A DNA stretch of 64,000 nt from a bacterium (GTDB lineage Bacteria > Bdellovibrionota_C > UBA2361 > CALJRW01): the NCBI GenBank assembly GCA_031385045.1, contig JANNBC010000013.1:1-64000 (forward strand), in the 5' to 3' direction. A program made the translations under genes and the position numbers. Positions 6,769-58,539 of this stretch are shown here, piece after piece; position 1 is the stretch's first letter, and each line of letters begins with the position of its first letter. Under the pieces are notes generated by a model that did no database searches, was not told the origin of the DNA, and worked only from the letters and a program-made list of their open reading frames with translations.

Positions 6769-9687
6769 CTAACTAGCCAGGTTAGCAAATAGCGTATCCC
6801 AATCCTGCCTAATGCTTTCTGGGATTGGAATTTGATTATCCTGAAAATTACGATACTCCAAATCTTGAATTTCGCGCCATATCTTAGCATCCATCGAAAG
6901 TGAAAGCTTGGAGAAAAATGGTAATAATTTAGAACCACTATCTTTAATAAACTCAGGAGTAAAAAGCCGTTCATTTTTAGTAAATAGCTCACAAAACCCT
7001 TGAATTTCCGGCAAAGTTTTCTCTTTAAAATTAATCCATACACGAAGTAATTTAAGATTTTTTTCAGAAAAATCTTGGCTACTAATTGCTTCGTGTGCCA
7101 GCTTTAAATCTTGATTAGCCTTAAAAATCTCTTCTAGCACTTCCCGTGCCCTAACAATTCCCATTTGCTGAACTAAATCTGGAGAAGGAAAATTCTTTTT
7201 AGCTGTTTCTAAATAAAATGCTATTCGCAGAGCTGGAATACGAATATCAGTATTAATAGTATGAGCGAATAAGGCTTTAAATGGATTATCTCCCTCCACC
7301 GGACTAGTTGCTGCGTGAAAAGAATCATGACTGTGCTTAGCAACATCTGTCTCCGCACCAAAAACTTGCGGAGCAACTTTAGCGGCCACCTCAGCAACTA
7401 AAGGATATTCCTTCCAACGATCATAAACTAGCTTACTGTGATGATTAATTAATACATGTCGCTTTAACAATCTCTTAATCAGCACATCGCGAGACTCCAA
7501 ATAGAGTTCAGTATTATTTAAAATTGTTGCTGGAATTTTTGCATTAAGCTCAATGTTTTCAATCAAATCAAAAGCCTTCTGAGGATCATCTGCTCCCAGC
7601 TTAACCAAGGCCCGAGCAAGAAATGGACCGCTAAAAATCTGGGTCTTAGCTTTTGTCGTATCTTTAAAAATACTCTCTACATCATCAAGCCCAGCTAAGT
7701 ATGGCAAGGTATAATCAGAATATAACATTGCTCGCGCTTCGTTATAGGCATACTGGTAGCGATAAGTTGGAAAATCAGTAATCTTGATAGCATCCTTCTC
7801 TCGTGCCAAGCTCCGATTCGCCAAAATAATTCCTGGAACAGGCTCTCCTAAAACATAATGCATATGATCATGGGAGAAACGAAATGAAACTGTTCGCTTA
7901 TCATCGGGCCAAGGATCAGAAAAAATGGGAACAATTGGACTAAAAAAAGGCTTCTCGTCAGGATGATTCATCACTACAGACATAACTCCTAACTCATTCT
8001 CGCAGTGGCGTTTCACATGACGATAAACAGGCAAACGACTAAGCAAGCGATCGGCCTCTAAGGACTCTTCTGTCAGGTATGCTTGTTGCCGTGAACCAGA
8101 ATTAATAATATTACTAAAAATCTTTTGCTCCTTGGGACTAGCATCAAGATTCAAACTATCAGCCTTGACCTGAAAGGCATCTCTAAGAATATAAGCATAA
8201 AGGATTAATCTTGGATCGCGAATCGTACCACTCTTAGAAAGCGTGATAATATCATTAACATCTAACATATAAGTATTTAGTGTTTCATCAATCCCTTGAG
8301 ATGATTCTACTGTTGTCCTTGGATCAAACTCACTAAAAACCACGCCAACTTTTTCTCCATTAAAACCAGGAGAAGGAAAAACCGAAGTTAAAATTGTTGG
8401 AGCTCCAATCGGATGATGTTTAATTTCTTCCTCCACTTCAGCTTTCGCTCGAAAGAGTATTTGCTCTGGACCTTCACTTAGCTCCATACTCCCTGCCACA
8501 ACTTCTGGATTAAGGGGAGTAAGGGTTTGAGCGATTGGATGCTCCGCGGAATCACGAATGGAAATTGCCGGGCGCAAACCTCGTTTAAATTTAATAATCA
8601 CCTTACCATCAACATGACAGTACGTCGGAACATCAACTGAGTCCGTACCCTTTCTTTCCACAACAGAAATTTCACGCCGAGACTCTTCTCCCAAGCCATT
8701 TAGATAGTTAACTTGATAATGATTTAATGTCAGAAAAGTCCTGGCCGGATTTTCAACTGCCGAGATCTCTACGTGTGCAGGCTTTCCTGGATCAACATTT
8801 ATTGGTCGTAACTGCTCTCTAAACTGTGCTGGTGTTAGAATCTCTTTTGCCAGGGAAGATAAATCAAAATCAGCTGTTATTGAAGATAAATTTAGATCTA
8901 GATTTAACTTAATGCCTTTATCATCACAAAATCTAAAAACTGCTAGCACTAATCTTAAGTCATTTATCTCTCCCGCCAGATATTTATCAAGTACGACTTG
9001 AGGTTTAAGAAACTCACGAATAATCGGTCCACTAAATTTACTATCAAAAGTTACCACAGCTTGATGTTCTGGCTGATTAACTTCAATCGATCTTGGAAAA
9101 GCTAACTCAGTAGAGCCACCTACAGAGGGGAAATAAGCTGAACCTAAAAATTCAGAATTATAATTTTGATCCTTAGGAGTTACTCCAATCTTAGTAGCTA
9201 AGAGCGCGGCTGTTGTGGCTTCAATACTAGCCATCCCACGCTCAGCACTAATATACATACCAGGTAAGCAATAAACCATGTCCTCCACTGGATCGATTTT
9301 TCTTGTGGCAAGGGCAGGACGATGAACTTTATTGACTGCTACAAAATATTCATCACCTGCTTGATAGTAAGGAAGTAAATCTAAAACATCTTGCTCTTGG
9401 TGCATCTGTACACTACGAATAATTGTTTGATCTGCTTCTAGCTCCAAGCCATTATTATCAAAGTAGCGAACTCGCCAACTAGTTACTGAAGCATGAGACT
9501 CTTTTCCCCCTGAAAGCTCGGCTATTGGCTTAACAGTTACATTTTTAATTAATCGAGAATCACTGGGATCATATTTTTCAAAGTTAGCAGGAGTCACATG
9601 GACTTGCGCAGATCCTGTAGGAATAGCCTTATCGTCTAAATTTAGATCACTAAGATGAAGGTTTAGAGTTAAAGTTGGGCTTGGCAT
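6769..9687 (-). CDS. Tandem Nudix (ADP-ribose pyrophosphatase-like) protein with an uncharacterised C-terminal HDxxH...E domain
   Basis: Two NudF-like repeats (RPA...[CE].[PA]G...FPS.G...E...G.I.D.R). The second keeps an acidic Nudix-like box (AGSMELSE...AEVEEEIK); the first has lost it. The C-terminal half carries HDHMH (7858-7872) and NEARA (7729-7743). Confidence 0.65.
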   Translation of the reverse strand: MPSPTLTLNLHLSDLNLDDKAIPTGSAQVHVTPANFEKYDPSDSRLIKNVTVKPIAELSGGKESHASVTSWRVRYFDNNGLELEADQTIIRSVQMHQEQDVLDLLPYYQAGDEYFVAVNKVHRPALATRKIDPVEDMVYCLPGMYISAERGMASIEATTAALLATKIGVTPKDQNYNSEFLGSAYFPSVGGSTELAFPRSIEVNQPEHQAVVTFDSKFSGPIIREFLKPQVVLDKYLAGEINDLRLVLAVFRFCDDKGIKLNLDLNLSSITADFDLSSLAKEILTPAQFREQLRPINVDPGKPAHVEISAVENPARTFLTLNHYQVNYLNGLGEESRREISVVERKGTDSVDVPTYCHVDGKVIIKFKRGLRPAISIRDSAEHPIAQTLTPLNPEVVAGSMELSEGPEQILFRAKAEVEEEIKHHPIGAPTILTSVFPSPGFNGEKVGVVFSEFDPRTTVESSQGIDETLNTYMLDVNDIITLSKSGTIRDPRLILYAYILRDAFQVKADSLNLDASPKEQKIFSNIINSGSRQQAYLTEESLEADRLLSRLPVYRHVKRHCENELGVMSVVMNHPDEKPFFSPIVPIFSDPWPDDKRTVSFRFSHDHMHYVLGEPVPGIILANRSLAREKDAIKITDFPTYRYQYAYNEARAMLYSDYTLPYLAGLDDVESIFKDTTKAKTQIFSGPFLARALVKLGADDPQKAFDLIENIELNAKIPATILNNTELYLESRDVLIKRLLKRHVLINHHSKLVYDRWKEYPLVAEVAAKVAPQVFGAETDVAKHSHDSFHAATSPVEGDNPFKALFAHTINTDIRIPALRIAFYLETAKKNFPSPDLVQQMGIVRAREVLEEIFKANQDLKLAHEAISSQDFSEKNLKLLRVWINFKEKTLPEIQGFCELFTKNERLFTPEFIKDSGSKLLPFFSKLSLSMDAKIWREIQDLEYRNFQDNQIPIPESIRQDWDTLFANLAS

Positions 9688-9748
9688 CTATCTACTATTA
9701 ATCAAATTCAAAAAAGAACAGACTTATTTAAAAGCAATCCATCGGTAC

Positions 9749-9790
9749 AGTTGTGACTCTTCACTAAACAATCACGTAAGAGTCACAACT
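9749..9790. repeat. 13-bp perfect inverted repeat (stem-loop) between pncB and the Nudix gene
   Basis: AGTTGTGACTCTT-16nt-AAGAGTCACAACT, with no U-tract directly after it on the minus strand. Confidence 0.8.
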
Positions 9791-9807
9791 TTAACAAAAT
9801 TTACTGA

Positions 9808-11106
9808 CTAAGCTACGACCTGCAGATTCTTATTCGGCATCTCATAACGTCCAACTTTAGACATTCTTGCTTGTTTCTCTTTTGTTCCCACGGCAACAAT
9901 GTCCATTGTCGCAGTTCGACAAGGCTTAAAGATCCCTCCAACCCCTAAGCTATCGAAAAGCTTCACATTTAAAGCCTTCTCCGCTTCGACAAAGGCCTTA
10001 ACCTTCGCTACTGAACCAAAACCACTAGTTAAAATTATTTTGATATTTTGATGTCCAGCAACATCAAGCGCAGCTCTTAAGGCATAAACACCTGTAACCG
10101 TAACTCCAGTACCATACCAATACTTGGCATCTGGGTGAAACTTGGCTGGTAGCTTTAAGCCTTTAGCTCTCCAACTTTGAGCACTTGGATCATCAGGTCC
10201 TGTTAGCCCACCTTGAGCCACATTCTCACCACAAGTATCAACTCGCACTGCTTCCAGTCGATTCCCTAATGCCTTAGCTACGGCTAGCGAATCACTTATC
10301 TCACGATTATTATAATCAATCAGCGCAATCCTTGGAACTACTGGATCAATTACTCGATCAAATGCTTTTGTTGCCTCAACAACTGCATTATCTTTGCCAT
10401 ATTTCCAAGCATAAATATTCTCTAAGGCATGCGGTATTGTTCCAACTCCAACACTATCAAAAGAAGATGCTCCAAAATCTGTAGAACAACTTTTTGCTCC
10501 GCCTAAATGAGCAGCGTAACTAATGGCGCGGTCTTCACCATAATGCCAATGTCTGGCGCCAAAGTAAGAAACCGGACGACCACCTGCGGCCTCCACAACT
10601 TTTCTCATTCGCTCCTCAGCTTCTTTTAAATCAACTTGCCCCACACCATCATTAACTTCCGTAATCTGCTTAGTTAATACTCCCAGATACATAGTTTCTA
10701 GCTCGACCATATCTTGAATTGGTCCTTCTAAAGTAATCAACGCATCCTTTGCTTGATAAGTAGACCCTTCAGACACTGCTTTAATTACTCCACCGTGCTC
10801 TCTTAGCTGACTATACTGTTCGATTACCGCTACTGCTTCATGAATTCCAGCAACTTCTCCTGGCCCTTGTCTTACAAAGACTTGTGCCTTAACCCATGGG
10901 TTTAAACCTTCGGCTTTTAAGATCTCTGCTGTTCTTAAAAAGTACTTATCAGCATACATTTGATTTGTTAATGGCAAATGCTTTTTATAAAGCTCAATCG
11001 CCTCGCGACTATGAGCTGGTTGTTGAACTACTTGTTCCTCGACAACTGGAGTAAAACTTTCTCCTGCTAAAACATTCTTACCTAACCCAGCTTTATCTAC
11101 TTCCAT
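9808..11106 (-). CDS. pncB: Nicotinate phosphoribosyltransferase
   Basis: DKYFLRT, FGARH, GTIPHAL, LID, VRVDT, ILTSGF and GVG motifs of the type II PRTase (NAPRTase) family. GGAGG RBS before ATG at 11106. NAD gene context. Confidence 0.85.
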   Translation of the reverse strand: MEVDKAGLGKNVLAGESFTPVVEEQVVQQPAHSREAIELYKKHLPLTNQMYADKYFLRTAEILKAEGLNPWVKAQVFVRQGPGEVAGIHEAVAVIEQYSQLREHGGVIKAVSEGSTYQAKDALITLEGPIQDMVELETMYLGVLTKQITEVNDGVGQVDLKEAEERMRKVVEAAGGRPVSYFGARHWHYGEDRAISYAAHLGGAKSCSTDFGASSFDSVGVGTIPHALENIYAWKYGKDNAVVEATKAFDRVIDPVVPRIALIDYNNREISDSLAVAKALGNRLEAVRVDTCGENVAQGGLTGPDDPSAQSWRAKGLKLPAKFHPDAKYWYGTGVTVTGVYALRAALDVAGHQNIKIILTSGFGSVAKVKAFVEAEKALNVKLFDSLGVGGIFKPCRTATMDIVAVGTKEKQARMSKVGRYEMPNKNLQVVA

Positions 11107-11170
11107 TACTTTCCTCCAAATCAAAAATCTTAATTTGGAGTTTGGCAATTTTAATAGTTATGTGCTATTA

Positions 11171-11188
11171 ATTGTTAAAATTAACATT
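11171..11188. promoter_or_regulatory. Candidate operator palindrome TGTTAA-AA-TTAACA (site 1)
   Basis: Lies in the divergent pncB/regulator intergenic region. An identical 14-mer sits upstream of pncA at an almost equal distance from the ATG. Confidence 0.7.
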
Positions 11189-11211
11189 AATATTATTAAA
11201 TTATAATAATT

Positions 11212-12201
11212 ATGAAACTATCAGATAAGGATCGCCGAGTTTTACAGTGCGTCGAGCTACAAGCAGATTTACCAATTGAGAAGATTCGCAAAGCAACTAA
11301 GCTTCGAGAACATTCCATTCGCTACTCACTAAAATCCTTGGAAGATAAACGAATCATTCAAATGATGCCCTTCATTAACGTCACAGCTCTGGGCTACACG
11401 ATGTACAACATCTTTTTTTCAATCATGTCTGAAAGTGCCAAAACAAAACAAACCTTAATGAAAGAACTACAAGCGACTTCTGAAATTCTGTGGGTAGCGG
11501 AGATGGGATCTGAATATCAATATTGTCTCGGAATTTGCGCTAAGAGTATTCATGACGTGCACGAACTGCTTTATTCGATGACTAAAAAAACTGGTAATGT
11601 TTTTTTTCATAAAACTATCTCGGCTCAATTCTCAGCAACTTTTTTACCAAGAAAATATTTAGGTTCAAATTATAAAAAAGATCAAAAGCTAAGTATTGAA
11701 AAAGTTGAGCATAGCATTACAATCGATCAACTCGATGAAAAAATTCTTTCAATCATGGCTCGAGCTGGTAGCGCCTCTCGTCGGCAAATGGCCACAGAGC
11801 TTGATGTTCCACTCTCCACCTTCGAACTGCGAGTTAAGAAAATGGAAGATAAAGGAGTTATCTCTGGATATGTTTATGGAGTTGCTTCAGAAAAATTTGG
11901 CTTACAGTCTTACAAACTATTACTGTTTGCCAAAGGAATCGATGCCAACCTTCGTCAACAATTATTAGAATTTGCTCAAGCAGAGCAAACAATTACCGCC
12001 TTCTATGAATGTTTAGGAAATTGGGATTATGAATTTAACCTTGAAGTAGAACTAGCAGAACAAGTAATGAATTTAACTCAGAAGATTTATAGTAATTTTA
12101 GTAATCAGATCCAAAGTATTAAGGCGATTCCTAAGTTTAAAGATTTAAAGTTTGATCTCTTTCCACATCAATCAAACCCTAAGACTCCATCAAAGCTTTA
12201 A
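11212..12201 (+). CDS. Tandem (double) Lrp/AsnC-family transcriptional regulator
   Basis: Two HTH+RAM units: LSDKDRRVL...IRYSLKSLEDKRII and IDQLDEKIL...RVKKMEDKGVISGY...CLGNWDY. Confidence 0.85.
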   Translation: MKLSDKDRRVLQCVELQADLPIEKIRKATKLREHSIRYSLKSLEDKRIIQMMPFINVTALGYTMYNIFFSIMSESAKTKQTLMKELQATSEILWVAEMGSEYQYCLGICAKSIHDVHELLYSMTKKTGNVFFHKTISAQFSATFLPRKYLGSNYKKDQKLSIEKVEHSITIDQLDEKILSIMARAGSASRRQMATELDVPLSTFELRVKKMEDKGVISGYVYGVASEKFGLQSYKLLLFAKGIDANLRQQLLEFAQAEQTITAFYECLGNWDYEFNLEVELAEQVMNLTQKIYSNFSNQIQSIKAIPKFKDLKFDLFPHQSNPKTPSKL

Positions 12202-12263
12202 CTACTCCTAGGAGCAACTTTAAATACTTTTACTTTCATTTTTAATAACTACTTAATCTTGGA

Positions 12264-12288
12264 GTGGAGGTTGGTTAACAACCTCCAC
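12264..12288. terminator. Hairpin between convergent genes (probable terminator)
   Basis: GTGGAGGTTG-GTTAA-CAACCTCCAC, a perfect 10-bp stem. Confidence 0.65.
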
Positions 12289-12297
12289 CATATTAAT

Positions 12298-13281
12298 TTA
12301 CAAATTAGTTAGTAATCCTAATTTATCAGATACTGCTGATAGTCCAGCAGGATCACTAATATGCACGACATTAAGCAGACGAGCGATGTCCTCATTTGTT
12401 GGAACTCGGTCTGAAGAAAGTAATGTTCCACGAGCTAGAGCATCACTATTATACAACTCGGGAATCTTTCCTTCCTTTGCTGCCTGTACAAGCTGTTCCG
12501 CAGCACGACCTGTACCGTCAACTATAATTACAGGAATATTTTTACTAAGTGCTAGCAAGGCTTCATCTAAAGTAACATCACCGCCATTAACAACACCAAT
12601 AGCAGCTTTATATCCCGCACCTTGCATCTTCTCTAGTGCACTCAAATACCAGCGAACATCACCGTTCCAACCCTGATACTCAAAAGCTGATTCTTGAGTA
12701 AGAATATTTTGATGTCCTCTAGGATCTAACTCAGCTCCGTACTTAGAAGCAACAACACCTCCCTCTTCTTTTAACCTTAGCCGATATGTCGCTGGAGTAG
12801 ATCCCCAAGCTACTGCGTCGGTAACTCTGGCAACATAATAGGGAACTTGCGTAATCATCACTGACTCTGCTCCGTCCTTGTCAAAATCCTGAGTTCCACC
12901 AGAGCCAACAGAACCTTGAAAATGTCTTAAGCCATCAGGAGACACCAAGCCCTTGGCAACAAATTTCATTAAGTCCTCGACCTGCTCTGGATTAAAACCT
13001 TTACACCCACCAGCCCATCTAACAACTACATCGGCCTTTGCTTGCTTGCCAAGAGTTACTAAAGCATCAACTGCCGCTGCTTGATCAGACATTCTGATAA
13101 TATCAAGCCAACTATGCTTTGCTTCACGAGCAATCACTAAAGGATTTTTCATGACATCCTTAAAACCTAATTCCGCATCATGCGGTAGTTCAAAGACTCT
13201 GGGAGCCTTTGGTAATGCTCCCAGAGCACCCTGATCTAAACCTGTTTCAACCTTTGGTCCACCATCCATTCCTGCACCCAT
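12298..13281 (-). CDS. SLOG-superfamily protein, TRPM/LSDAT-like
   Basis: V.W.GG..., SGGT, W..D and VNGG..TLDE...A...IPVIIVDGTGRAAEQL, matching the LSDAT/TRPM MHR1-2 signature (NGG...E...PV.V..GSGR.AD). Confidence 0.7.
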   Translation of the reverse strand: MGAGMDGGPKVETGLDQGALGALPKAPRVFELPHDAELGFKDVMKNPLVIAREAKHSWLDIIRMSDQAAAVDALVTLGKQAKADVVVRWAGGCKGFNPEQVEDLMKFVAKGLVSPDGLRHFQGSVGSGGTQDFDKDGAESVMITQVPYYVARVTDAVAWGSTPATYRLRLKEEGGVVASKYGAELDPRGHQNILTQESAFEYQGWNGDVRWYLSALEKMQGAGYKAAIGVVNGGDVTLDEALLALSKNIPVIIVDGTGRAAEQLVQAAKEGKIPELYNSDALARGTLLSSDRVPTNEDIARLLNVVHISDPAGLSAVSDKLGLLTNL

Positions 13282-13301
13282 TTTTTTCCCTTTTTAAAAT
13301 A

Positions 13302-14285
13302 CTAAGCCCAGTCAGTAACTAGTCCTAGCTTGTTAATTGCATCGCGAATTGACTGCTGATTTAAATCCACCACAACAGCACAAGGGTTTTCACTCAGCCA
13401 TTTCGCATCATTTGCAAATTTGTCAGCGACACCGCCACTACCTTTAATTAAGAGAATTTTTGTTCGATCATTGGAATCAGCCTTGGCAGCCATGCTCCAA
13501 TCCACTAGCTCTTGTTCTACCGTACTAAGGGTAAACGCCTGGTTTGAGACTCTGCCACCAAAAACCACTAATGTAGTGTTCCAAGATTTTTTAGATAGAT
13601 TGGCACAAAGCCTTAAACATTCTTTTGCTTCATCAGACCAGGTAAATGAATGATTGGTATCAGGTTGAATCATAATACCAATGTTAATATCGGGATTAAC
13701 TCGAGTGAAATAACCATCTTTTTTATCAGGCGAAGAATGATCATGAACATCTACCAACAAACCAATATCCTGAACCAAGTGAGTAGAGACATCTACCTTA
13801 GGTACAATGCCAATTAAAATTAAATCAGGATCTTTTTCTTTAAGTACAACCGGCACATCAGTAATTGTTGCGCGCACTTGGCCCGATTCCAGATCAAGTA
13901 TCTGTGTTCCACCAAACATATGGAACCCTTTTACTCCTCTAAAAGCATTGAGAACTTCTGGTAAATCTTTGGCATATTCTCCAATGTTAGCTGACCAGCC
14001 AGTCCATCTAATAACTTGTTCCGGCACTCCTCTTTGAGCAAATTCAAAAATTAATTTCTCAGAGCGTTCCGTATCATTTTTCCAAACTAGCTCCGTCGGC
14101 ATTTTAGAAAGTAAAAATTCACGAAGCGAAATATCTTTTTCTACACCAGGAGCTGTAACTGTTGCTGGAGCGGAGCCTGCAAAATTAATATTAGTTCTAG
14201 ATGGTGGCTCACGACCCCCACTAGTAAAACTCTCTCCAGAGAGATCTGCCAATGTGAGCGCAGCTTGATGTAACTCTTGACCCAT
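13302..14285 (-). CDS. Second, more divergent SLOG/LSDAT-like paralogue
   Basis: IRWTGW, FGGT, W.DE and VVFGG...E...ILLIKGSGGVADKF occur in the same order as in the neighbour, and the length is the same (327 aa). Confidence 0.6.
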   Translation of the reverse strand: MGQELHQAALTLADLSGESFTSGGREPPSRTNINFAGSAPATVTAPGVEKDISLREFLLSKMPTELVWKNDTERSEKLIFEFAQRGVPEQVIRWTGWSANIGEYAKDLPEVLNAFRGVKGFHMFGGTQILDLESGQVRATITDVPVVLKEKDPDLILIGIVPKVDVSTHLVQDIGLLVDVHDHSSPDKKDGYFTRVNPDINIGIMIQPDTNHSFTWSDEAKECLRLCANLSKKSWNTTLVVFGGRVSNQAFTLSTVEQELVDWSMAAKADSNDRTKILLIKGSGGVADKFANDAKWLSENPCAVVVDLNQQSIRDAINKLGLVTDWA

Positions 14286-14583
14286 TTTGATCTTCTAGTA
14301 AAAATTCTTCAAAATAAATTTAGCTGAAGCGATCGGACTAATCCCGAGGCTCTTGAAAGTAAAAAAAATTATTGGCTGATTTAAGATTTCGGACGGAAAG
14401 GAATTATTATTAAGGAGTTTTTCGACTCCCTGAGGCTGAGAGTCTAATAGACTGCCCCAAAACGAGAATATCTTCAATGATTTTGATATATTAACAGCGA
14501 CAAACAAGCTAGAGGAGAGAATCCACATATTTGAGTTTTTACAACTTATCACAACTTCCACCCTTAAATAAGCAATTTGCAAC

Positions 14584-14613
14584 TTCTCCGAGTAGCCGTT
14601 CGGCAACTCGAGA
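14584..14613 (-). terminator. Imperfect GC-rich hairpin after eamA
   Basis: CGAGT-A-GCC-GTTC-GGC-A-ACTCG, flanked by TTCTC/GAGAA, about 20 nt downstream of the eamA stop. Confidence 0.5.
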
Positions 14614-14632
14614 AAAGATCAAACTTAAAAAT

Positions 14633-15418
14633 CTAACTAGCAATAACAATTGTTCCTAAACAAATCGTAATCACCGAAAATGCCTGTGAACGATAAATCT
14701 TTTCCTTAAATAAAACTGCGCCCATTACTAAACTAATTAAAAAACAAAATCCTTTGTTAAAGACTTCAAAATAACCGGCAGAAAAAGCTTGTAAACAATA
14801 TAGTTCTGCTAGATAGGCAGAAGAACCTAAAAGAAAAATTATGCTAATTTCTTTTTTAAATTTGTAATTAATAGATACTCTTATCTCTCTAAAGAAAATT
14901 AAACTTAGAAAGGTAAGAGCAATTAAGGAAGTGCCTAGGCCATGAGTCGCAAGCGAGGCATAATTTAAGGCTTGATGATCAACGGCAACACCTATCCCCC
15001 AAAAAGATCCGGCATAGATCATTGGTAAAGATTTTTTTCTAACTAAAAATATCGTTCCTAGCAAAATGAGAACTAAGCCTAGCAACAAATTATTGCTAGG
15101 AATAATTCCAAAAAAAAGATCACTTAAAACTGTTAGTAGCGGTGAAATACCAAGGAGTGGAATTACATCGGAAAAGCGATTATCTCTTAAGGCTAAAATA
15201 AAATAATAGCTACCTAAAGTTTGAGTTACTCCAGACAGGAGGAGTAGCGGTAGATAGTTTAAGGTGAAATTATAGTTTTTGGGCAAACAAGCAAAGACAA
15301 TTACCTGACTAAGAAATGTAAAAAATAAGATGCTAGCTATTGGCAAAACTTTACCAAGCATCTTACGGTAGATGTCAAACACTGCCCAAATGAGAGTAGT
15401 TAATAATAGCAATAACAT
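14633..15418 (-). CDS. EamA/DMT-family transporter (candidate NAD-precursor transporter)
   Basis: About 10 hydrophobic segments, S.V.PL...SP and G..LFKE..I motifs. ATG at 15418 lies immediately after the nadE stop. Confidence 0.75.
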   Translation of the reverse strand: MLLLLLTTLIWAVFDIYRKMLGKVLPIASILFFTFLSQVIVFACLPKNYNFTLNYLPLLLLSGVTQTLGSYYFILALRDNRFSDVIPLLGISPLLTVLSDLFFGIIPSNNLLLGLVLILLGTIFLVRKKSLPMIYAGSFWGIGVAVDHQALNYASLATHGLGTSLIALTFLSLIFFREIRVSINYKFKKEISIIFLLGSSAYLAELYCLQAFSAGYFEVFNKGFCFLISLVMGAVLFKEKIYRSQAFSVITICLGTIVIAS

Positions 15419-15419
15419 C

Positions 15420-17165
15420 CTAATACATCCCATGACTAATCGGAATCCTACGACCAAAACCAAAAGCTTTTGGTGTGACACGAATCCCGGGAGCCGCTTG
15501 TCGGCGTTTAAATTCATTAATTTTAATTAACCTTAGAGTTCGATCAACGACTGCTGAGTCATAAAGCTGATGGAGTTCTCCTCTAGTTAATTGTCGATCA
15601 ATAATATCATCCACTAGCGGTGAAAGAATGTCATAGTCTGCCGGTAGATTCTGAGCATCTGTCTGTCCAACTTCTAATTCGGCAGAAGGCAAGCGAATGA
15701 TTGTGGTTTCTGGTATGACCTCTTTTCTTTTTAAAGCATTGTAAAACTTTGCTAATTCATAAACCCGTAATTTATTAACATCACTAATTACCGCAAGACC
15801 TCCACACATATCACCATACATTGTACAGTAACCAAGGGCAGTTTCTGTTTTATTTCCACAACTAATCACCAATCCAAATCGATCTTCGTTGGTATATTCC
15901 ATGATAATAATTCCGCGAAACCTTGCTTGCACATTTTGCTTGGTTAAGTTTTCTGGCTGATGACCGTTAGCATCAACAAAGCCTGCTAGCCAATCACGGT
16001 ACAATTGAGCAATGGGACGAACATCAACCTTAGCACCTAAATTATTAGCTAACGTAATGGCATCATTTTTTGTTTCATCGGAAGTAACATGCGAAGGCAT
16101 TGTCACTGCCGTAACATTTTCAGCCCCCAAAGCCTCAACTGCCAGAACTAAACCAACAGCAGAATCAATTCCACCACTTACTGGAATATAAGCATGCTTC
16201 ATGCCAGAGCGTCGGAAGTATTCTCTAGTACCAAGGACTAGGGCATCAAACACTTCGTGGATTTCTTGGGCAGTATCTAAAACTAAACTTGCTGGCTCAC
16301 GTAGATCGATTTGATAAGTTTCTTCTTTACCGAACTCTCCCGTCTTATAATATTTGCCATTACTGCCCCGGGCGAGACTTTGTCCATCAAAGGGAATTTC
16401 TCCATGATAAGAATCAAAAGCGCCAACTAAGTTATTGTAAAGAAATGGAATGTCTCGATCCTGTAGTAAATGATCAATTAACTCGGCACGCTTTTGGATT
16501 TTACCCGGCTCAAAAGGCGATGCTGATAAATTGATTAAGAGCTCTGCTCCTTGATCAATTAATCCTTGATAAACTTTTGTTTCATAACCCTTATCCCAAA
16601 GATCTTCGCACACTCCAATCCCAACTTTAATTCCCTGAATTTCTACTAAGTTAGATCCATTACCTGGAGTGTAGTAGCGTTTTTCATCGAAGATATCGTA
16701 AGTCGGGAGTAGTTGTTTACGAATAATGTTTGTAATTATCTTGTCTTGAATTACGGCTACAGAATTATAAAGTAGCGCTGTTCCGTCAGGGCCAATTTTA
16801 TCAAAGTCTGGCTCGACAAATCCAACTAAGGCAGTAATGCCTCGACATTCTAAAGCAATCTTTTCTAAATACTCTAAATTCATTTCTACAAAATCAGGAT
16901 TCTTGACTAAATCTAAATGGGCATAGCCAGGCAACACTAACTCTGGAAAAACAATTAATTTTGACCCAGCTTTCTTTGCTAGTTTAATTTGCTCAATAAT
17001 TTTTTTAGTATTAGCCTCAAAGCATCCAGGGTCAGTAGTAATTTGAGCCATAGTGACTTTTAAATTGAGACCCTTAGCTACCTGAGCACCTGAGCCTTCC
17101 ACTTCAGTGGAGGCTGAAGGTAAACCAGTAGTACTTGCTAAAATATTCTCTCTAACTTGCAACAT
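15420..17165 (-). CDS. nadE: Glutamine-dependent NAD+ synthetase
   Basis: Nitrilase domain (FPEL, K.LLPTY.IFDE.RY, CEDLW) plus synthetase domain (SGGIDSA, NVQAR.RG, NKTE...GY.T.YGD, PSAEL, EFKRRQ). Confidence 0.95.
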   Translation of the reverse strand: MLQVRENILASTTGLPSASTEVEGSGAQVAKGLNLKVTMAQITTDPGCFEANTKKIIEQIKLAKKAGSKLIVFPELVLPGYAHLDLVKNPDFVEMNLEYLEKIALECRGITALVGFVEPDFDKIGPDGTALLYNSVAVIQDKIITNIIRKQLLPTYDIFDEKRYYTPGNGSNLVEIQGIKVGIGVCEDLWDKGYETKVYQGLIDQGAELLINLSASPFEPGKIQKRAELIDHLLQDRDIPFLYNNLVGAFDSYHGEIPFDGQSLARGSNGKYYKTGEFGKEETYQIDLREPASLVLDTAQEIHEVFDALVLGTREYFRRSGMKHAYIPVSGGIDSAVGLVLAVEALGAENVTAVTMPSHVTSDETKNDAITLANNLGAKVDVRPIAQLYRDWLAGFVDANGHQPENLTKQNVQARFRGIIIMEYTNEDRFGLVISCGNKTETALGYCTMYGDMCGGLAVISDVNKLRVYELAKFYNALKRKEVIPETTIIRLPSAELEVGQTDAQNLPADYDILSPLVDDIIDRQLTRGELHQLYDSAVVDRTLRLIKINEFKRRQAAPGIRVTPKAFGFGRRIPISHGMY

Positions 17166-18156
17166 TTTTTTCTCCTTGATTTATCACTAAAACTTTAAGT
17201 GGTTGAGGGGAGATGCCAATTTGCAACTTTGTTCCCATCTTTAAATCGATCCGCACTAAAGAATCTGCCGAAATAACTCCTTGTGAATCATTAAGCGAGG
17301 TAACTGTAACCTGCTGAGCGTGATTAATTTCTCCTGTAATTAACTTGGCACTGACTATCTTTCCACGATAAGGGGAGGTTAAGAGAAATGCTCCAATTTG
17401 ATTTGTCTTAGCAAAAATATTTCCACCTGGATGAGCAAAAGCATTCTCCGAGTGATACCAACCAGTAGAATTTGCTCCCGTAGTAATTAGTAAGCCAGAT
17501 CCCTTTTGCTCTTCCACAACTCCGTCTACTTCCAGCAAGTGCCGGGACATATTGGGACGCTCTAGTTCTCCAATAAAAAAGTCTCCACTACACCTAATTC
17601 GGCGACCATCTTCTAAACTTGCTTCTAGGCGAGTCCAGTCTTCAATTAAGTAATCACCAGTGATAATACTTTTTAGAATCTCTTCAAATTGATCACTGCG
17701 ATAATAAGTTAAAGCTCCTTCACTTAATTGTGGATCGGAATTTACACCCACAATAAATCCATCCTCCATGAACTGCGCCACAAATTGAAAATGATTATCT
17801 CCGCCTAAGGCAATTACTAGCTTGGCCTTTTGCACCTGCTGATAACTAATATCATTTCGATTAATAATCTGATCGGGGCTTAAAATTTGTGATAAATTTT
17901 GTAAGCTCGTTTGCTGTCTTTGATGACTACCAAGAATCCGATCAACACTCAGCCCTTGTTCTTGATAACGCTTTAATAATTGATCCTCAGAGATTTGGAG
18001 TCTACGCTGGTCATACTCTAATTTTGACTCTTTACTAACAACTAGAATTTGATCTAAGCGTATTTTCTCAGGCTCTAGCATTGTGGGCTTTCTCCGAATC
18101 TCAGAGAAAGCTTCTCCTCCAGAATTTATTAATTGTGGATTCATCAGTGGATTCAT
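17152..18156 (-). CDS. nadK: NAD kinase-like protein (divergent, NADK2-like N-terminus)
   Basis: LGGDNHF, GVNSDP..SEG and QKGSGLLITTGANSTGW motifs, located between gapN and nadE. Start chosen at ATG 18156. Confidence 0.75.
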   Translation of the reverse strand: MNPLMNPQLINSGGEAFSEIRRKPTMLEPEKIRLDQILVVSKESKLEYDQRRLQISEDQLLKRYQEQGLSVDRILGSHQRQQTSLQNLSQILSPDQIINRNDISYQQVQKAKLVIALGGDNHFQFVAQFMEDGFIVGVNSDPQLSEGALTYYRSDQFEEILKSIITGDYLIEDWTRLEASLEDGRRIRCSGDFFIGELERPNMSRHLLEVDGVVEEQKGSGLLITTGANSTGWYHSENAFAHPGGNIFAKTNQIGAFLLTSPYRGKIVSAKLITGEINHAQQVTVTSLNDSQGVISADSLVRIDLKMGTKLQIGISPQPLKVLVINQGEKNVAS

Positions 18157-18157
18157 C

Positions 18158-19708
18158 TTAGATTGCCTTTCTAACAAGCAAAGTTTCTAAGGAGAATTCT
18201 TTAACGGCGTCTGGGATTGAGATTGTTCCCATGGCCGAACTTTTACGCCCACTAAAAGGCAAGTAATCTGGTCCACGTTCACAAACTTGATTAATATTTA
18301 CTCGCGCAGTCAGTCTTTGTAATGGTCCTGCTAATGCATTAATTTCAGCTTCGTCTTTACTAAAGATACTTGCTTGCTGACCAAAAGGTGAATTAGCTAA
18401 AGCTTCTAAAATTTCACTACTATCATCATAGGGAATTAATGGCACAACTGGACCAAACTGCTCCTCATGAAAAATCTTCATTTTAGAATTTACATCACCA
18501 AGCACAACTGGATGATATAAATTACTCTCTTTTGCTCCGCCATTTTGATTTAAGACTTTAGCTCCCTGTGCCACAGCATCACTAATAAATGCATCCAAGG
18601 CATCTGCTTTATTTGGCTCTGCAACAGGAGTAATAAAAACTCCCTCCTCCCATGGCTGTCCTACTGTTAATTGATCAACTTTGTAAGCTAAAAGCTTAGC
18701 AAAATCTTGATACACAGATTTATGCACAAAAATATTTTTAAGCGCCGTACATCTTTGACCATTAAAACTAAGTGCTCCTTTAATCACAGCATCAACGCTC
18801 TCTAATAAGTCAGCATTGGCCGTAATTATTGCTGGATTTTTTGCACCCAGGCCCAAAACCATTTTTAAACGATGGGGAGCAGGATGTTGCTTACTAAGAA
18901 TATCAGCAACCTTAGTGCTACCAATAAATACTAAGGCATCAATATCTCCTGATTGCATTAACGGTGTTACTACTTCTCGGCCATCACCATAAACTAGGTT
19001 GATTGCACCTGCTGGAAATGCTTCTTGAAAGGCTTTAGCTATTGGTCCATAAAGCAGAACTCCTTGTTTTGCTGGCTTCAGGATCACAGTATTCCCCATT
19101 AACAATGCAGGTAAAACAGTTGTTAAGGTTTCATTTAATGGATAGTTAAATGGTCCCATGCAGAGAACTGTCCCAATTGCTTCCCGAGAATATTTAACTT
19201 CCATCCCGCCAACTTGTTCTACTTTATTAGCAGTAGCTCTAAGATAAGTAATTGTCTCTTCAACATATTGCACCGTTCGATCAAACTCTTTAGTTGCATC
19301 AGGTACAGACTTACCAATCTCCCAAACAATTAGTTTGACTATTTCAGCTTTAGATTTTTCTAATGCTTTTAAAAATACCTCTGTGGCCTCAATTCTTTTC
19401 TCTAATGTTGCGCTCGGCCATTCTCCAAGACCTTTGCCATAGGCTGACTTCGCAGAATCCAAGATTTCCAAAGACTCCTTACTGCCTAAAAGTGGATATG
19501 ACCCAATAAGGCTCTGCTTAACATTATTGGTTAAAGGAGAGAAAACATTTTCTTGCTCACCAAACCAGTTACGAATCTCTCCATTTACTAAATAACTCCG
19601 TTGATGAAGCGCGCTCTTAAGCTCCCACGTTTCTGGCACTTTAATAGCTTCAATATCAACCTTTGTTTTTTCTGCTACACTTATTGGAAATGATTGCATT
19701 GCTAACAT
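18158..19708 (-). CDS. gapN: NADP-dependent non-phosphorylating glyceraldehyde-3-phosphate dehydrogenase-like ALDH
   Basis: MGPFNYPLNE, KPAKQG, FIGS, SFNGQRCTALK, EEQFGP and RGPD.LPF.GRK.SA motifs. Confidence 0.8.
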   Translation of the reverse strand: MLAMQSFPISVAEKTKVDIEAIKVPETWELKSALHQRSYLVNGEIRNWFGEQENVFSPLTNNVKQSLIGSYPLLGSKESLEILDSAKSAYGKGLGEWPSATLEKRIEATEVFLKALEKSKAEIVKLIVWEIGKSVPDATKEFDRTVQYVEETITYLRATANKVEQVGGMEVKYSREAIGTVLCMGPFNYPLNETLTTVLPALLMGNTVILKPAKQGVLLYGPIAKAFQEAFPAGAINLVYGDGREVVTPLMQSGDIDALVFIGSTKVADILSKQHPAPHRLKMVLGLGAKNPAIITANADLLESVDAVIKGALSFNGQRCTALKNIFVHKSVYQDFAKLLAYKVDQLTVGQPWEEGVFITPVAEPNKADALDAFISDAVAQGAKVLNQNGGAKESNLYHPVVLGDVNSKMKIFHEEQFGPVVPLIPYDDSSEILEALANSPFGQQASIFSKDEAEINALAGPLQRLTARVNINQVCERGPDYLPFSGRKSSAMGTISIPDAVKEFSLETLLVRKAI

Positions 19709-19730
19709 TTTACTCTCCTATTAAAATTTA

Positions 19731-20378
19731 TTAAGCACTTAAATTAATTTCTCTTCCAGTAGCTTGCTCGATGCCTGGCAAGATAGAACGACTTTGAACA
19801 ATCGCTACTCCACTAGCCGTCAACTCACGCAAGGCTTTTAAATCGTCTCCGGGATTAATATTAACTGCGCGCGTTGCATCTAGAATCAACTCCGTTTTGT
19901 ACCCAAGCTCCACAGCATCAAGCGCCGTGGCCTTTACGCAATAATCAAGTGCTAATCCACAAACAGAAACTTCAATATCTCGCGGGGAAATTTGTAATCG
20001 CTTAGCAACATTTTTTAAGAAGCTATCTAATTCCGTTTGATTAAGTTTGGCGTTATCAAAGAAAGCACTATAGCTATCAATCTCAACCTTTGTTCCTTTA
20101 ATAATGACTTGGTCAATTTTATCGCTAGCTAACTGGGGATGAAATTCCGCTCCAAAACTTCCTTGGATACAATGATCTGGCCATGGACCATTTAGATTAT
20201 TAGATGCAAAACTAGAATGATTACTTGGATGCCAGTCCTTACTAGCAATAACTAAATCATAAATACCTGAAGCAATTAACTGGTTGGCAACAGCAACAAC
20301 TTGATCTCCTTGCTCTACAGCTAAATTACCACCAGGACAAAAATCATTTTGTATATCAACTAAAAGTAGTACTTTCAT
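19731..20378 (-). CDS. pncA: Nicotinamidase
   Basis: VDIQNDFCPGG.LAV, DWHP..H.SF, WPDHC, KG...DSYSAF and GLA.DYCVKATA. AGGAG RBS before ATG at 20378. Confidence 0.95.
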   Translation of the reverse strand: MKVLLLVDIQNDFCPGGNLAVEQGDQVVAVANQLIASGIYDLVIASKDWHPSNHSSFASNNLNGPWPDHCIQGSFGAEFHPQLASDKIDQVIIKGTKVEIDSYSAFFDNAKLNQTELDSFLKNVAKRLQISPRDIEVSVCGLALDYCVKATALDAVELGYKTELILDATRAVNINPGDDLKALRELTASGVAIVQSRSILPGIEQATGREINLSA

Positions 20379-20440
20379 TCCTTCTCCTAAAAACATGACT
20401 ATGTTTAGAAGATAAGGATTTTTAGACTTATTTAGAAATG

Positions 20441-20458
20441 AATGTTAAAATTAACAAT
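20441..20458. promoter_or_regulatory. Candidate operator palindrome TGTTAA-AA-TTAACA (site 2)
   Basis: Identical to 11173-11186 and 65 nt upstream of the pncA ATG. Confidence 0.7.
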
Positions 20459-24430: not shown

Positions 24431-26830
24431 CTACTGAATATTAAAAAGTCCTTGAGCAAGAGAACTAGATTCCCCATGATCGATCTGCAAATTAATCTCT
24501 CTTAATTTTGCTAACACTAGATGTACAGCCTTTGTTACAATCTCAGCATTCGAATCAACTGAGAATTTAGAATGACTACGTAGTTGAAATGGAACCAAAG
24601 AATGAGCCGATGCTAAATAAGTTTCATCAAAAGAATTTTGCTCAATTGCGTGCATATCAGGATTTCGATCTCGATTTCTAGAATTTACTAGATGGTGATT
24701 TTCTAAATAGACAAAAGCTCCATCAAGGGTTTTTTGAATACTACCATCGTGTAATTCCATTTCCACTGGACCAACAGTTGCGCAGGCTAACCTCTCTCGA
24801 TTTAATGATTCATAGTAGCCATCTTCTTGAAAGCTATATAGCTCCTTGGCAACACTTTGCCGAAGAGGATAAATATCTTGCACACCTTCGATCGAAGCTA
24901 ACTCTGCTAATCTTTTTGAAACCTCCATCATTGCCGATATTTTAGCAACACCACCAAGCCCACTACCAGCATCTAACACTATTTGGGCATGTTCCTGACT
25001 TTGTACATTAAAAGCTACAAGGTCTTGATCCGTAGCTGTTGTTCTTTGTTTTGTGACTTCATCCTTTAAGCTAGTTTTTACCCGAGCTCTTAATTCAACA
25101 CTCTCACCAGCAGGAACTTTTACTAATAAAACACGCTTATCTTGCAGGCAGATTTGCAACTGATCATAATCAAAATCCTGCCGATTAATTCTTAAAAAAA
25201 GATGTCCACTTTCAGCAACAACGATATTTTCTACTAAACGCTGATAGATTAATTCCGCATCAGGAAGTGCCTGAGTCGCTTCTTGATAATTTTTTAAAAG
25301 TGTCACCAGCGTTGGCAGTATTGTTGGATCAGATATTTCCTTAGGAAATTGTTTGACAATTGATTCTGGTAATTGACGAAAGGCATGGAAGTACTCAGCA
25401 TTAATACTTCCTCCTGTGGATAGCAATGCTTGCCGACGCTCAGCTAAAAGCCTAGCTTCTAACTCCTCCTGCAAGGGATAGCCTGCAATATACTCCCCAG
25501 TTCCAACCAGTGCGCCTGCTTTACTTTTTGACGGAACCCCGTCTTGATTGGAAGAAAGTAACTCAAAAAATCCGCCCAAAATTCGATCTGTCTGTTCAGT
25601 AACAATTGGATATTCGCTACGCAATCTTGCTAAGACAGGCTCCCTTCGATCCAAAACACATGGCAAGGTAGACAGTACTACATACATTAAATAATTTTCT
25701 TCTTGAAAAGCTCGCTCCACTCCATGGGTATTACTGACAAATTGAGAGAAGTCTTTGGCATAGGCATGATAAGCCTCTAGCTCAGTGCTAATTGACTGCT
25801 TTAAACTTGGATTGGCATCAAACAACATTCGCCAAGTATAGTTATGCATCGAAGCCGTAGTAACTTCGTAGTTTATTAATAATTTGTTAGCATTTAAATG
25901 ATCGACACTATAAATATCATTGCCCCAATTTTGAAACTCTTTCGTCCGGGCTGCTAAGTCATAGAGCAACCAAGAATGTCCCCAATCATGCGTTGGAATC
26001 ATTAATAAATAAGTCATCGATTGCAACAAAGGGTTTTCGCTTAATGTTTTCTCTGGGAAAGTTTTCTCATGCCATGCCATTAGATTTTGAACAATCTTAT
26101 TATCTAACATATAAAGTGGATAATCTTCTTCAAATCCATCAAATAAGCACTTCCCAACACAAAAACGAAAAACATACCCAGAATCTTTTTGACCTTCTTG
26201 TTTAAATAAACGCGGAGACGCTGTGGCGCTAATACTTAAATCACCAATCTGTGCCTTGCCATTAAACACCTGTGTCTTAGTTAAATCACCAAAACCATAA
26301 GTCCCCGAACTTTTTCCTTCTAATAAATCGGCAACTATCACTGGGGTAGAGTTCATCAGCGTTCGCATCATGAGCATTCGCTGCCTGGCATAAGGCTTGG
26401 GCTGAATGGTTTTTAGATTTTTAAAAAGCCCGACAACTTCGGCTAATTCTACATTCTGCTGATCGGCTATTTGCGCTAATTCTTTAAAGACATGTGGCGT
26501 TAAATGATTATGCTTAGCAAGCAGTTCCTTAAAGTCTTCATCAGCAATTCCTAAACGCTTTGCTAAGACGTAAGAGCGACGCTCATCATTAGCCCAAAGA
26601 CCAACAGCTTGATAATAAGGAGAAAGCCGATCTAATTCTAGATTAACTCTTTCGGCAAAAGTATGAGTCGCTAAAGAAACATTTTTAATAAAACGAATTC
26701 TTTCCTCAGAATCGGCTTGAAAAGCGATATGAAAACCAGAAGGCTCTACGTTACCAAAGGAAAGCCGTGGAGATCCTAAAGAGGCTAAACTAATCTTGGT
26801 TGGTAAACTTGGGGCACTACTAATCTTCAT
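24431..26830 (-). CDS. Hypothetical 799-aa protein with an HDxxH...E motif and a possible C-terminal PGDYG-like repeat
   Basis: Long ORF. THDWGH at 25976-25990 with Glu (NYE) 36 residues later. C-terminal DIYPL...ELY and MHAI..NSFDETY elements. Confidence 0.6.
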   Translation of the reverse strand: MKISSAPSLPTKISLASLGSPRLSFGNVEPSGFHIAFQADSEERIRFIKNVSLATHTFAERVNLELDRLSPYYQAVGLWANDERRSYVLAKRLGIADEDFKELLAKHNHLTPHVFKELAQIADQQNVELAEVVGLFKNLKTIQPKPYARQRMLMMRTLMNSTPVIVADLLEGKSSGTYGFGDLTKTQVFNGKAQIGDLSISATASPRLFKQEGQKDSGYVFRFCVGKCLFDGFEEDYPLYMLDNKIVQNLMAWHEKTFPEKTLSENPLLQSMTYLLMIPTHDWGHSWLLYDLAARTKEFQNWGNDIYSVDHLNANKLLINYEVTTASMHNYTWRMLFDANPSLKQSISTELEAYHAYAKDFSQFVSNTHGVERAFQEENYLMYVVLSTLPCVLDRREPVLARLRSEYPIVTEQTDRILGGFFELLSSNQDGVPSKSKAGALVGTGEYIAGYPLQEELEARLLAERRQALLSTGGSINAEYFHAFRQLPESIVKQFPKEISDPTILPTLVTLLKNYQEATQALPDAELIYQRLVENIVVAESGHLFLRINRQDFDYDQLQICLQDKRVLLVKVPAGESVELRARVKTSLKDEVTKQRTTATDQDLVAFNVQSQEHAQIVLDAGSGLGGVAKISAMMEVSKRLAELASIEGVQDIYPLRQSVAKELYSFQEDGYYESLNRERLACATVGPVEMELHDGSIQKTLDGAFVYLENHHLVNSRNRDRNPDMHAIEQNSFDETYLASAHSLVPFQLRSHSKFSVDSNAEIVTKAVHLVLAKLREINLQIDHGESSSLAQGLFNIQ

Positions 26831-58434: not shown

Positions 58435-58479
58435 AAATTTGTATATAATCTGATTAAGGGCAAGACTGTAAGTCAAAGG

Positions 58480-58520
58480 TTTAGTGACTAAATGCAATTT
58501 ATAAACATTTAGTCACTAAA
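58480..58520. repeat. 15-bp perfect inverted repeat between sulP and dabA
   Basis: TTTAGTGACTAAATG-11nt-CATTTAGTCACTAAA. Confidence 0.8.
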
Positions 58521-58539
58521 TTATTATAGATCCTAAAGT

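Follow-up and report, generated by a model that had tools for sequence, protein, structure and literature searches.

The DNA analysed here, a window of 64,000 nucleotides (positions 1 to 64,000 of contig JANNBC010000013.1, assembly GCA_031385045.1; Bdellovibrionota_C, lineage UBA2361), carries between positions 6,769 and 20,458 an NAD(P) island of ten genes: a run from pncA to eamA, two SLOG genes, a tandem Lrp regulator, and pncB together with the gene of a giant 972-aa protein with two Nudix folds. This arrangement had been proposed in a sequence-only reading. We verified all ten open reading frames (ORFs) in position and orientation, and family profiles agreed with the proposed gene order and families (Table 1). 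The island is flanked by chromosomal genes.

Table 1. Features of the NAD(P) island and of the type III export sets. Positions refer to the window; those with a prefix use our own location labels.
Feature	Position	Strand	Remarks
Giant Nudix ORF, 972 aa	6769..9687	-	two Nudix folds and a C-terminal helical domain
C-terminal helical domain of the 972-aa protein (residues ~520-972)	6769..8130	-	invariant H606, D607, H610, E650
Nudix repeat B of the 972-aa protein (residues ~300-510)	8158..8790	-	NudF-like; E417, E420, E421 present
Nudix repeat A of the 972-aa protein (residues ~33-262)	8902..9591	-	Nudix-box glutamates gone; PSxGxSxE motif retained
pncB, nicotinate phosphoribosyltransferase	9808..11148	-	likely start 11106 (GGAGG), leader ~40 aa
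Second palindrome copy, candidate operator	11173..11186		between pncB and the Lrp gene
Tandem (double) Lrp/AsnC regulator	11212..12201	+	divergent from pncB
SLOG1, stand-alone TRPM-type SLOG with leader	12298..13281	-	LSDAT_prok E 1.2e-10
SLOG2, stand-alone TRPM-type SLOG with leader	13302..14285	-	LSDAT_prok E 0.0035, below cut-off
Non-coding block of ~50 nt in the eamA/SLOG2 gap	14520..14575	-	near-identical in the same-genus genome
EamA/DMT transporter	14633..15517	-	likely start 15418; family match
Second glutamine-dependent NAD synthetase (NadE)	15420..17165	-	PRK13981 500.7 bits, cut-off 479; 32-aa leader
Second NAD kinase (NadK-like)	17152..18177	-	likely start 18156, ~35-aa leader
GapN-like aldehyde dehydrogenase	18158..19708	-	closest solved relatives NADP-GAPDH, E 6.5e-70
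pncA, nicotinamidase	19731..20396	-	likely start 20378; NCBIfam PRK11609 219 bits, cut-off 174
Pseudo-palindrome TGTTAA-AA-TTAACA, candidate operator	20443..20456		upstream of pncA
Non-flagellar type III export sets (two, scattered)	C7:7899-22342, C38:43355-47947, C13:18800-21100, C8:400-8200

PncA and NadE scored above their NCBIfam cut-offs; the matches of PncB, NadK and the GapN-like enzyme were below. PncB matched at E 2e-45 yet under the NCBIfam cut-offs, with QRPTase_N over its cut-off, and the closest solved relative of the island NadK is human mitochondrial NADK2 (E 4e-12). The top solved matches of the GapN-like aldehyde dehydrogenase (ALDH) are GapN and NADP-dependent GAPDH, yet it remained below every NCBIfam cut-off shown; family assignment makes it the putative NADP-reducing step. 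From salvage pathway I, PncA, PncB and NadE are present in the island. A nadD gene is absent from it, and the adenylyltransferase is supplied by the housekeeping NadD (C54:14542-15225). Because housekeeping NadA, NadD, NadE (also on C54, 57% identical to the island NadE) and a conventional NadK are encoded elsewhere in the genome, the island is an extra, accessory route.

As the sequence-only reading had claimed, one palindrome lies ahead of both the pncA and the pncB unit, at exact coordinates: the two copies of TGTTAAAATTAACA in Table 1 are the only exact ones in the 2.83-Mb genome. Genome-wide, two TGTTAA-N2-TTAACA sites were observed against 0.73-0.85 expected by chance. Since some 0.8 sites would be expected anyway, the evidence lies in the position of the copies before pncA and pncB and not in their count. 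In other genera, a site within three mismatches was present in 15 of 24 pncB upstream regions (200 dinucleotide shuffles gave 3.3 on average and never more than 8), and at two mismatches an operator-like site was present in 3 of the 24 versus 0.4 in shuffles; these 24 loci are kin and hence not independent. A same-genus genome has the pncB-side palindrome at the same place with one mismatch and retains only the left half of the pncA-side copy. Rfam returned a chance-level match only over positions 6000-27000, with no credible riboswitch, and sigma-70 and terminator scans gave signals no better than shuffles.

The tandem Lrp protein is a candidate binder of the palindrome; two tandem paralogues are encoded at C60:53494-54486, ~5 kb from nadA, and at C17:9818-10795. 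NrtR_WHD, which archaeal clusters with a related pncB do carry, was found in no island ORF (a genome-wide search for this domain was not made).

Relatives of the island were surveyed in 91 genomes of the order and 124 of the phylum. The nearest pncB match (88% identical) carries a Bdellovibrionota title, and so do most of those that follow it. This pncB type occurs in 27 of the 91 order genomes and, beyond the order, in DPANN archaea, Methanimicrococcus and seven viral contigs. We counted gene content in 25 bacterial lineage loci among 66 pncB loci, many on short contigs, leaving out the loci with archaeal titles and one locus each from Aminicenantes and Zetaproteobacteria. Gene order is shuffled among the 25, in which we found nadE (18 loci), pncA (14), a close orthologue of the tandem Lrp (11), NadD (10), the Nudix clade of the giant protein (10), NadK (8), the GapN type (5), EamA (3) and SLOG (1). 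The NadD copies are stand-alone or fused to NadK or to a Nudix domain, so that the adenylyltransferase missing here is often an island member in relatives. Fusions in relatives comprise Nudix-NadD, NUDT9-like Nudix-NadD, NadD-NadK and PncA-Nudix, and a gene for phosphoribosyl pyrophosphate (PRPP) synthetase adjoins one related island. Neighbourhood conservation and the operator test support the proposal that these genes form a dedicated NAD(P) module, one that is probably co-regulated.

Several of the loci outside the window deserve record. Nudix-NadD fusions with an intact Nudix box lie at L044:9005-10540, L047:14792-16333, L077:13996-15576 and L081:10478-12049; from motifs judged by eye, we take their Nudix part to be NUDT9-like. 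The seven viral contigs with the pncB type (L134-L140), some of which carry it near pncA, nadE or an adenylyltransferase gene, hint that phages may possess a deamidating route to NAD. Archaeal loci of DPANN type (L057-L108) hold large clusters of pncB, pncA, nadE, adenylyltransferase-Nudix, pnuC-nadR, nadK and nrtR, together with an ADP-ribosylglycohydrolase and a recurring radical SAM gene.

The 972-aa protein had been read as a giant double-Nudix protein. Its structural model (pLDDT 82, pTM 0.84; first 31 residues disordered) and fold searches confirmed two Nudix folds, which span only residues ~33-510; nearly half of the chain is an extra domain without an assigned family. The tandem Nudix part resembles EvaA (Z 19.0, root-mean-square deviation 4.2, 359 aligned residues, 9% identity) and NudF-family ADP-ribose pyrophosphatases (Foldseek E 1.6e-7), and repeat B alone gave a profile match to a Thermus ADP-ribose pyrophosphatase (E 3e-6). 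On the model, it may be a single-chain version of the NudF dimer. With the whole 972-aa sequence, Pfam and NCBIfam yielded no family except a weak NudF-type match, and a single-sequence search of the PDB gave 0 matches.

A profile search of 1.84 billion representatives recovered 76 proteins at E<=1e-30, and 55 near-full-length members were aligned; Nudix-NadD and PncA-Nudix fusions are among the profile matches. The catalytic glutamates of box A are present in 0 of the 55, so 'double hydrolase' alone does not describe this protein. Box B keeps E417, E420 and E421 here, with Ala for Arg and Lys for the last Gly. Because the boxes are degenerate yet RP..R and SPG..E are well retained in both repeats, the family looks like a nucleotide binder that has lost hydrolysis in many members. 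It shares the fold of both repeats and the SPG-x-x-x-E motif with NudF/NudK and the single-chain double architecture with EvaA, and it differs from them in its dead box A, variable box B and large additional C-terminal domain.

The only residues invariant across the 55 aligned proteins, F582, H606, D607, H610 and E650, all lie in that C-terminal domain; HDxxH and a Glu 40 residues further on are thus found in 55 of 55. Gluzincin metal sites consist of HExxH plus a distal Glu. The motif recalls these sites, and we infer that the domain is most likely a metal-dependent hydrolase. Folded alone, it was modelled with high confidence (pLDDT 94, pTM 0.93). Foldseek found no PDB match at E<=0.001 and no zincin stood among the fold-search rows, searches in which the core was barely tested; the best VIA matches (Z 7.4) were three-helix bundles covering model residues ~290-410 only. 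As the core was barely tested, the fold is one without assignment rather than one shown to be new. The best ESM Atlas score, 0.79, is a lead only, and the single BFVD match worth noting (E 1.4e-3, TM-score 0.48) was a Tupanvirus protein; the Tupanvirus look-alikes, both uncharacterised, are A0A6N1NWN3 and A0A6N1NDB5.

Full-length giant Nudix genes were found as 13 copies in 11 of the 124 phylum genomes and are tied to NAD genes as had been proposed: nine of the 13 have an NAD gene no more than 10 kb away, one of these nine joined through a 141-nt contig-end overlap and one being a half gene at a contig end, and the Nudix-NadD and PncA-Nudix fusions bear the link out. Of the other four copies, three lack such a neighbour and one is on a 3-kb contig. 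Ten of the 11 genomes also have the island pncB, compared with 27 of 91 overall. In other families, shorter tandem-Nudix proteins and methyltransferase-Nudix-Nudix fusions occupy the place of the giant; three architectures of tandem-Nudix protein thus recur next to NAD genes or in fusion with them, across several families.

Further observations concern the surroundings of this family. Fusions of a methyltransferase-like part with a tandem Nudix (750-1070 aa; L021:16160-18409, L047:17390-20608, L077:6652-9735, L081:1820-4885) adjoin Lrp or NAD genes in other families. A distant Nudix-Nudix-HDxxH branch bears an HWSHDAFH motif (P0093, P0097, P0119, P0128, P0141, P0106), and the Atlas links clusters similar to it to Myxococcota. 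In the window, a 799-aa orphan at 24431-26830 (minus strand) has an HDWGH...NYE motif and a leader-like N-terminus and occurs in 3 of 124 genomes. In the same-genus genome it is the gene immediately upstream of pncA; in the window a pilin gene and an ELWxxDGT-repeat gene intervene. We discarded it as a relative of the C-terminal domain, whose profile gave no match to it.

Both SLOGs are stand-alone proteins of 327 aa. SLOG1 passes the Pfam LSDAT_prok cut-off (41.5 bits, cut-off 25.4), and its best solved relative is choanoflagellate TRPM2 (E 0.016); SLOG2 falls below the cut-off (17.1 bits) and was placed through its alignment with SLOG1. The sequence-only reading had made this pair a core part of the module. 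That view was not supported. Relatives of SLOG2 were found in four and of SLOG1 in three of the 91 order genomes. The window and one same-genus genome are the only places where SLOGs were seen next to NAD genes (contexts that do not include those of P0154 and of P0155-P0159, the latter more distant SLOG2 relatives), and 1 of the 25 other pncB loci has a SLOG. Thus the linkage to NAD genes on which the earlier reading had staked its case holds in relatives for the Nudix gene and fails for the SLOGs. Two larger SLOG-domain proteins from other genera have no NAD genes in their fetched flanks; longer SLOG forms were not found among 7999 candidates, which is weak evidence, and a SLOG2 alignment scan of metagenome contigs gave 107 pattern matches and no relative. 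From this distribution the pair appears to be a genus-level add-on. It is not preceded by the palindrome, and the ~50-nt block upstream of it (Table 1), which is unique within this genome and had no credible match in Rfam, is a possible separate promoter.

The TRPM2 MHR1/2 region binds ADP-ribose through F268 and R275 in srTRPM2 (PMC11479946). In one short, weak alignment R275 faces Leu213 of SLOG1, and an invariant Trp lies near the ADP-ribose-binding aromatic position. The island SLOGs belong to the same LSDAT SLOG clade as TRPM2, which combines MHR1/2 with NUDT9-H, but they are stand-alone, have no channel and do not clearly keep the binding Arg; SLOGs and NUDT9-like Nudix-NadD fusions never occur in one island among the loci seen. 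Unlike in Thoeris and other SLOG effector defence systems, the SLOGs are unfused, and no island ORF has a TIR or SIR2 domain.

A feature that the sequence-only reading had not noted joins these proteins: NadE, PncB, NadK, the Nudix protein and the SLOGs of the window begin with disordered leaders of 25-55 aa, and such leaders are absent from housekeeping, viral and archaeal counterparts of the enzymes. With lengths counted from the closest upstream Met up to a core column that is conserved, we found leaders of 15-58 residues in 18 of 18 island NadE copies (2-4 residues in six archaeal copies and 4 in the housekeeping one), of 16-48 residues in 7 of 7 island NadK copies (1-9 in 14 others), and of at least 33 residues in 21 of 25 island PncB copies versus 2 of 47 others. 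Likewise, four stand-alone island NadD copies are 22-31 residues longer than the housekeeping ORF, and five archaeal or viral copies are shorter than it at the N-terminus. In the window, the leader starts of NadE, PncB, GapN and SLOG1 each have a ribosome-binding site ahead of them. The leader of NadK begins immediately behind the gapN stop, and an internal Met33 with GGAG is an alternative start. As a control, only 7 of 116 orthologue pairs with E. coli K-12 (800 kb) had at least 15 extra residues, and three of the seven look like start-calling artefacts.

The leaders are conserved in presence and length, not in sequence. Being enriched in P (2.5-fold), T (2.0-fold), E (1.7-fold) and Q, and depleted in aromatic residues, K, I and L, they are not Sec-like. 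A composition score trained on other genera and ranked over 1876 proteins of the genome placed the giant Nudix, PncB, SLOG1, SLOG2, NadE and NadK at the 94.5-99.8th percentiles, and GapN, PncA, Lrp, EamA and the housekeeping NAD enzymes at the 40th-69th; without GapN and PncA, the range for Lrp, EamA and housekeeping NadE, NadK, NadD and NadA is 40-66. Scanning 37 of the 45 top-scoring proteins, we found 21 without a Pfam family, a number to be read without a genome-wide baseline for orphans, and one with a phage-lysozyme domain; ScpB, NusG, RecJ and ribonucleotide reductase are also among the top scorers. Targeting to a compartment was rejected, as the genome gave no encapsulin or bacterial microcompartment shell match. 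PncA has no N-terminal leader; it has a ~20-aa C-terminal tail common to bacterial-island PncAs, which suggested type IV export, an idea dropped on finding no VirB4 match in the genome (VirB4 occurs in 12 of 91 order genomes).

The genome encodes two each of SctV/FlhA-family, SctR, SctU and SctJ-like proteins and, at 95% completeness, no flagellin match. One SctV gene lies within a Tad-like cluster that also holds FHA, kinase and PP2C genes. We identified neither needle nor translocon genes in the genome (the export ATPase was not looked for). Because FHIPEP genes are present in 90 of the 91 order genomes, type III gates do not single out the island carriers. An 847-aa orphan of the window (33304-35847, plus strand) with an S/T/P-rich N-terminus, a central hydrophobic stretch and no Pfam match resembles a type III translocator by eye.

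How might these parts work together? The reading we favour, to which we give about an even chance of being right, is that the island is an accessory, inducible NAD(P)-rebuilding module in the cell's own cytoplasm, analogous to NrtR regulons; the EamA membrane protein encoded in the operon fits a module working inside the cell. Such a module would act when the cell's NAD is being broken. By family assignment and pathway knowledge, PncA would convert nicotinamide to nicotinate and PncB nicotinate to nicotinate mononucleotide, from which NadD (housekeeping here, in-island in many relatives) would make nicotinate adenine dinucleotide and NadE NAD; the NADK2-like kinase would then form NADP and the GapN-like enzyme reduce it. 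The tandem Lrp may bind TGYTAA-N2-TTARCA-like sites, switching both transcription units together. The tandem Nudix would bind ADP-ribose, the dead site serving as a sensor, and repeat B, possibly active here, might cleave ADP-ribose to AMP and ribose-5-phosphate, feeding PRPP; binding could control the attached H-D-x-x-H...E domain. The SLOG pair may sense a related nucleotide, and the leaders might serve turnover or assembly.

NrtR regulons, such as nrtR-pncA-pncB-nadD-nadE in Clostridium and nrtR-nadD/pncA-pncB-nadE in Pseudomonas (PMC2330246), share with the island the salvage I enzymes, a common palindromic operator and a Nudix fold linked to ADP-ribose. Unlike these, the island has a tandem Lrp in place of NrtR, duplicates a complete housekeeping route, and adds the NADK2-like kinase, the GapN-like enzyme, the tandem Nudix with its extra domain and the leaders. 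The phage modules NARP1, NARP2 and NARP3 also provide an additional route for rebuilding NAD from breakdown products or precursors (10.1101/2024.02.11.579819; PMC13464706); they are described as two-gene modules for ADP-ribose recycling, the nicotinamide mononucleotide route, and PnuC plus NadR, respectively (PMC13464706). The sequence-only reading had set the island apart from NARP1 and NARP2, correctly, and it differs from NARP3 too, being cellular and deamidating, with ten genes, and proceeding to NADP(H); its ORFs match none of Adps+Namat, Nampt+Nmnat or PnuC+NadR and instead encode PncA, PncB, NadE, NadK, ALDH and EamA.

Several observations speak against a cytoplasmic module of this kind. 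The tandem Lrp is missing from 14 of the 25 loci as fetched, many of which are short contigs, and its two paralogues elsewhere in the genome are 27-30% identical. Three of the 13 giant-Nudix copies lie away from NAD genes, and only nine of the 55 family members keep the box B glutamates. The NadK motif is altered, GGDN replacing GGDG, and the GapN-like enzyme has Gly where aligned ALDHs have Glu (LGLGAKN). Finally, a cytoplasmic module leaves the leaders of NadE (18/18), NadK (7/7) and PncB (21/25) unexplained.

The leaders and the type III gates raise a different reading, by which the module serves in prey or host. The leaders would then be signals for type III export. By way of one of the two non-flagellar gates, the enzymes would be delivered together with the SLOGs and the giant Nudix into the cytoplasm of a prey or host, or into a shared feeding compartment, where they would rebuild the NAD(P)H of the victim and remove alarm signals of the ADP-ribose type, so that the victim stays usable; the island would thereby be a cellular counterpart to NAD reconstitution by phages. 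We regard this as possible and clearly less probable than the cytoplasmic module. Besides the non-Sec-like composition and conserved length of the leaders, it draws on the ribosome-binding sites before their starts, the scarcity of similar extensions in the control pairs, the high scores of six island proteins, and the two non-flagellar type III gates with one SctV in a Tad-like cluster. [quoted passage not shown] However, T3SS* is described there as lacking parts that effector delivery usually requires, and in this genome, too, no needle or translocon gene was identified. Moreover, PncA is leaderless, the GapN N-terminus scores as ordinary, NadD here is an untagged housekeeping copy, plain cytoplasmic proteins are also among the high scorers, and nearly all genomes of the order have the gates, whether or not they carry the island. 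Chlamydial type III secretion of glycogen enzymes is a precedent for exporting a whole metabolic route, and we found no NAD-pathway type III cargo in the literature. The source bacterium, which is uncultured, may be predatory; tentatively, then, a predator or symbiont might export an NAD(P) pathway with a Nudix protein, SLOGs and a metalloenzyme to sustain NAD(P)H in its victim and to mute NAD-based defence.

Two further readings fit less well than either of these. In the first, a SLOG-centred system, TRPM-type SLOGs would sense the products of NAD cleavage together with the double Nudix and set off rebuilding, so as to counter NADase toxins or defence systems. This is improbable: two species of the genus do have two SLOGs within the island, both bearing the leader seen on the enzymes, TRPM2 MHR1/2 binds ADP-ribose (PMC11479946), and viral ADP-ribose networks bring SLOG together with Nudix, Macro and NADAR (PMC9503650), but the linkage in 1 of 25 related loci, the larger SLOG proteins without flanking NAD genes, the Leu at the R275 position in one weak alignment and the missing palindrome all tell against it. 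We likewise think it unlikely that this is an ordinary NAD salvage cluster from a DPANN or phage pool with the giant Nudix, SLOGs and leaders as lineage-specific passengers; related pncB genes do sit in archaeal pncB-pncA-nadE-nadM-nudix-nadK-nrtR clusters and on viral contigs, such salvage clusters are common (PMC2330246) and the distribution in the order is patchy (27/91), but tandem Nudix proteins recur by NAD genes in three architectures, four enzyme families have gained leaders and the operator-like site is conserved.

Elsewhere in the window, a 997-aa gene, presumably DabA-like, lies within 55504-60075 (minus strand) beside NADH-dehydrogenase-subunit-like and SulP-like neighbours, which suggests an inorganic carbon uptake set.

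A literature search, with subscription journals mostly outside its coverage, found no paper on the gene set, the Nudix family or tagged NAD enzymes. Collectively, the results establish the module as real and as conserved; it includes one new protein family and one unexplained targeting feature. It offers a candidate new NAD regulon in which a tandem Lrp would act on a testable operator. It also brings to light a family of some 50 sequence clusters, tied to NAD metabolism by context, in which a pseudo-dimeric Nudix is attached to a confidently modelled domain without a solved relative. If the leaders are export signals, they would put a name to cargo of the needle-less type III systems found in predatory bacteria, and NAD reconstitution would extend from phages to cellular attackers.

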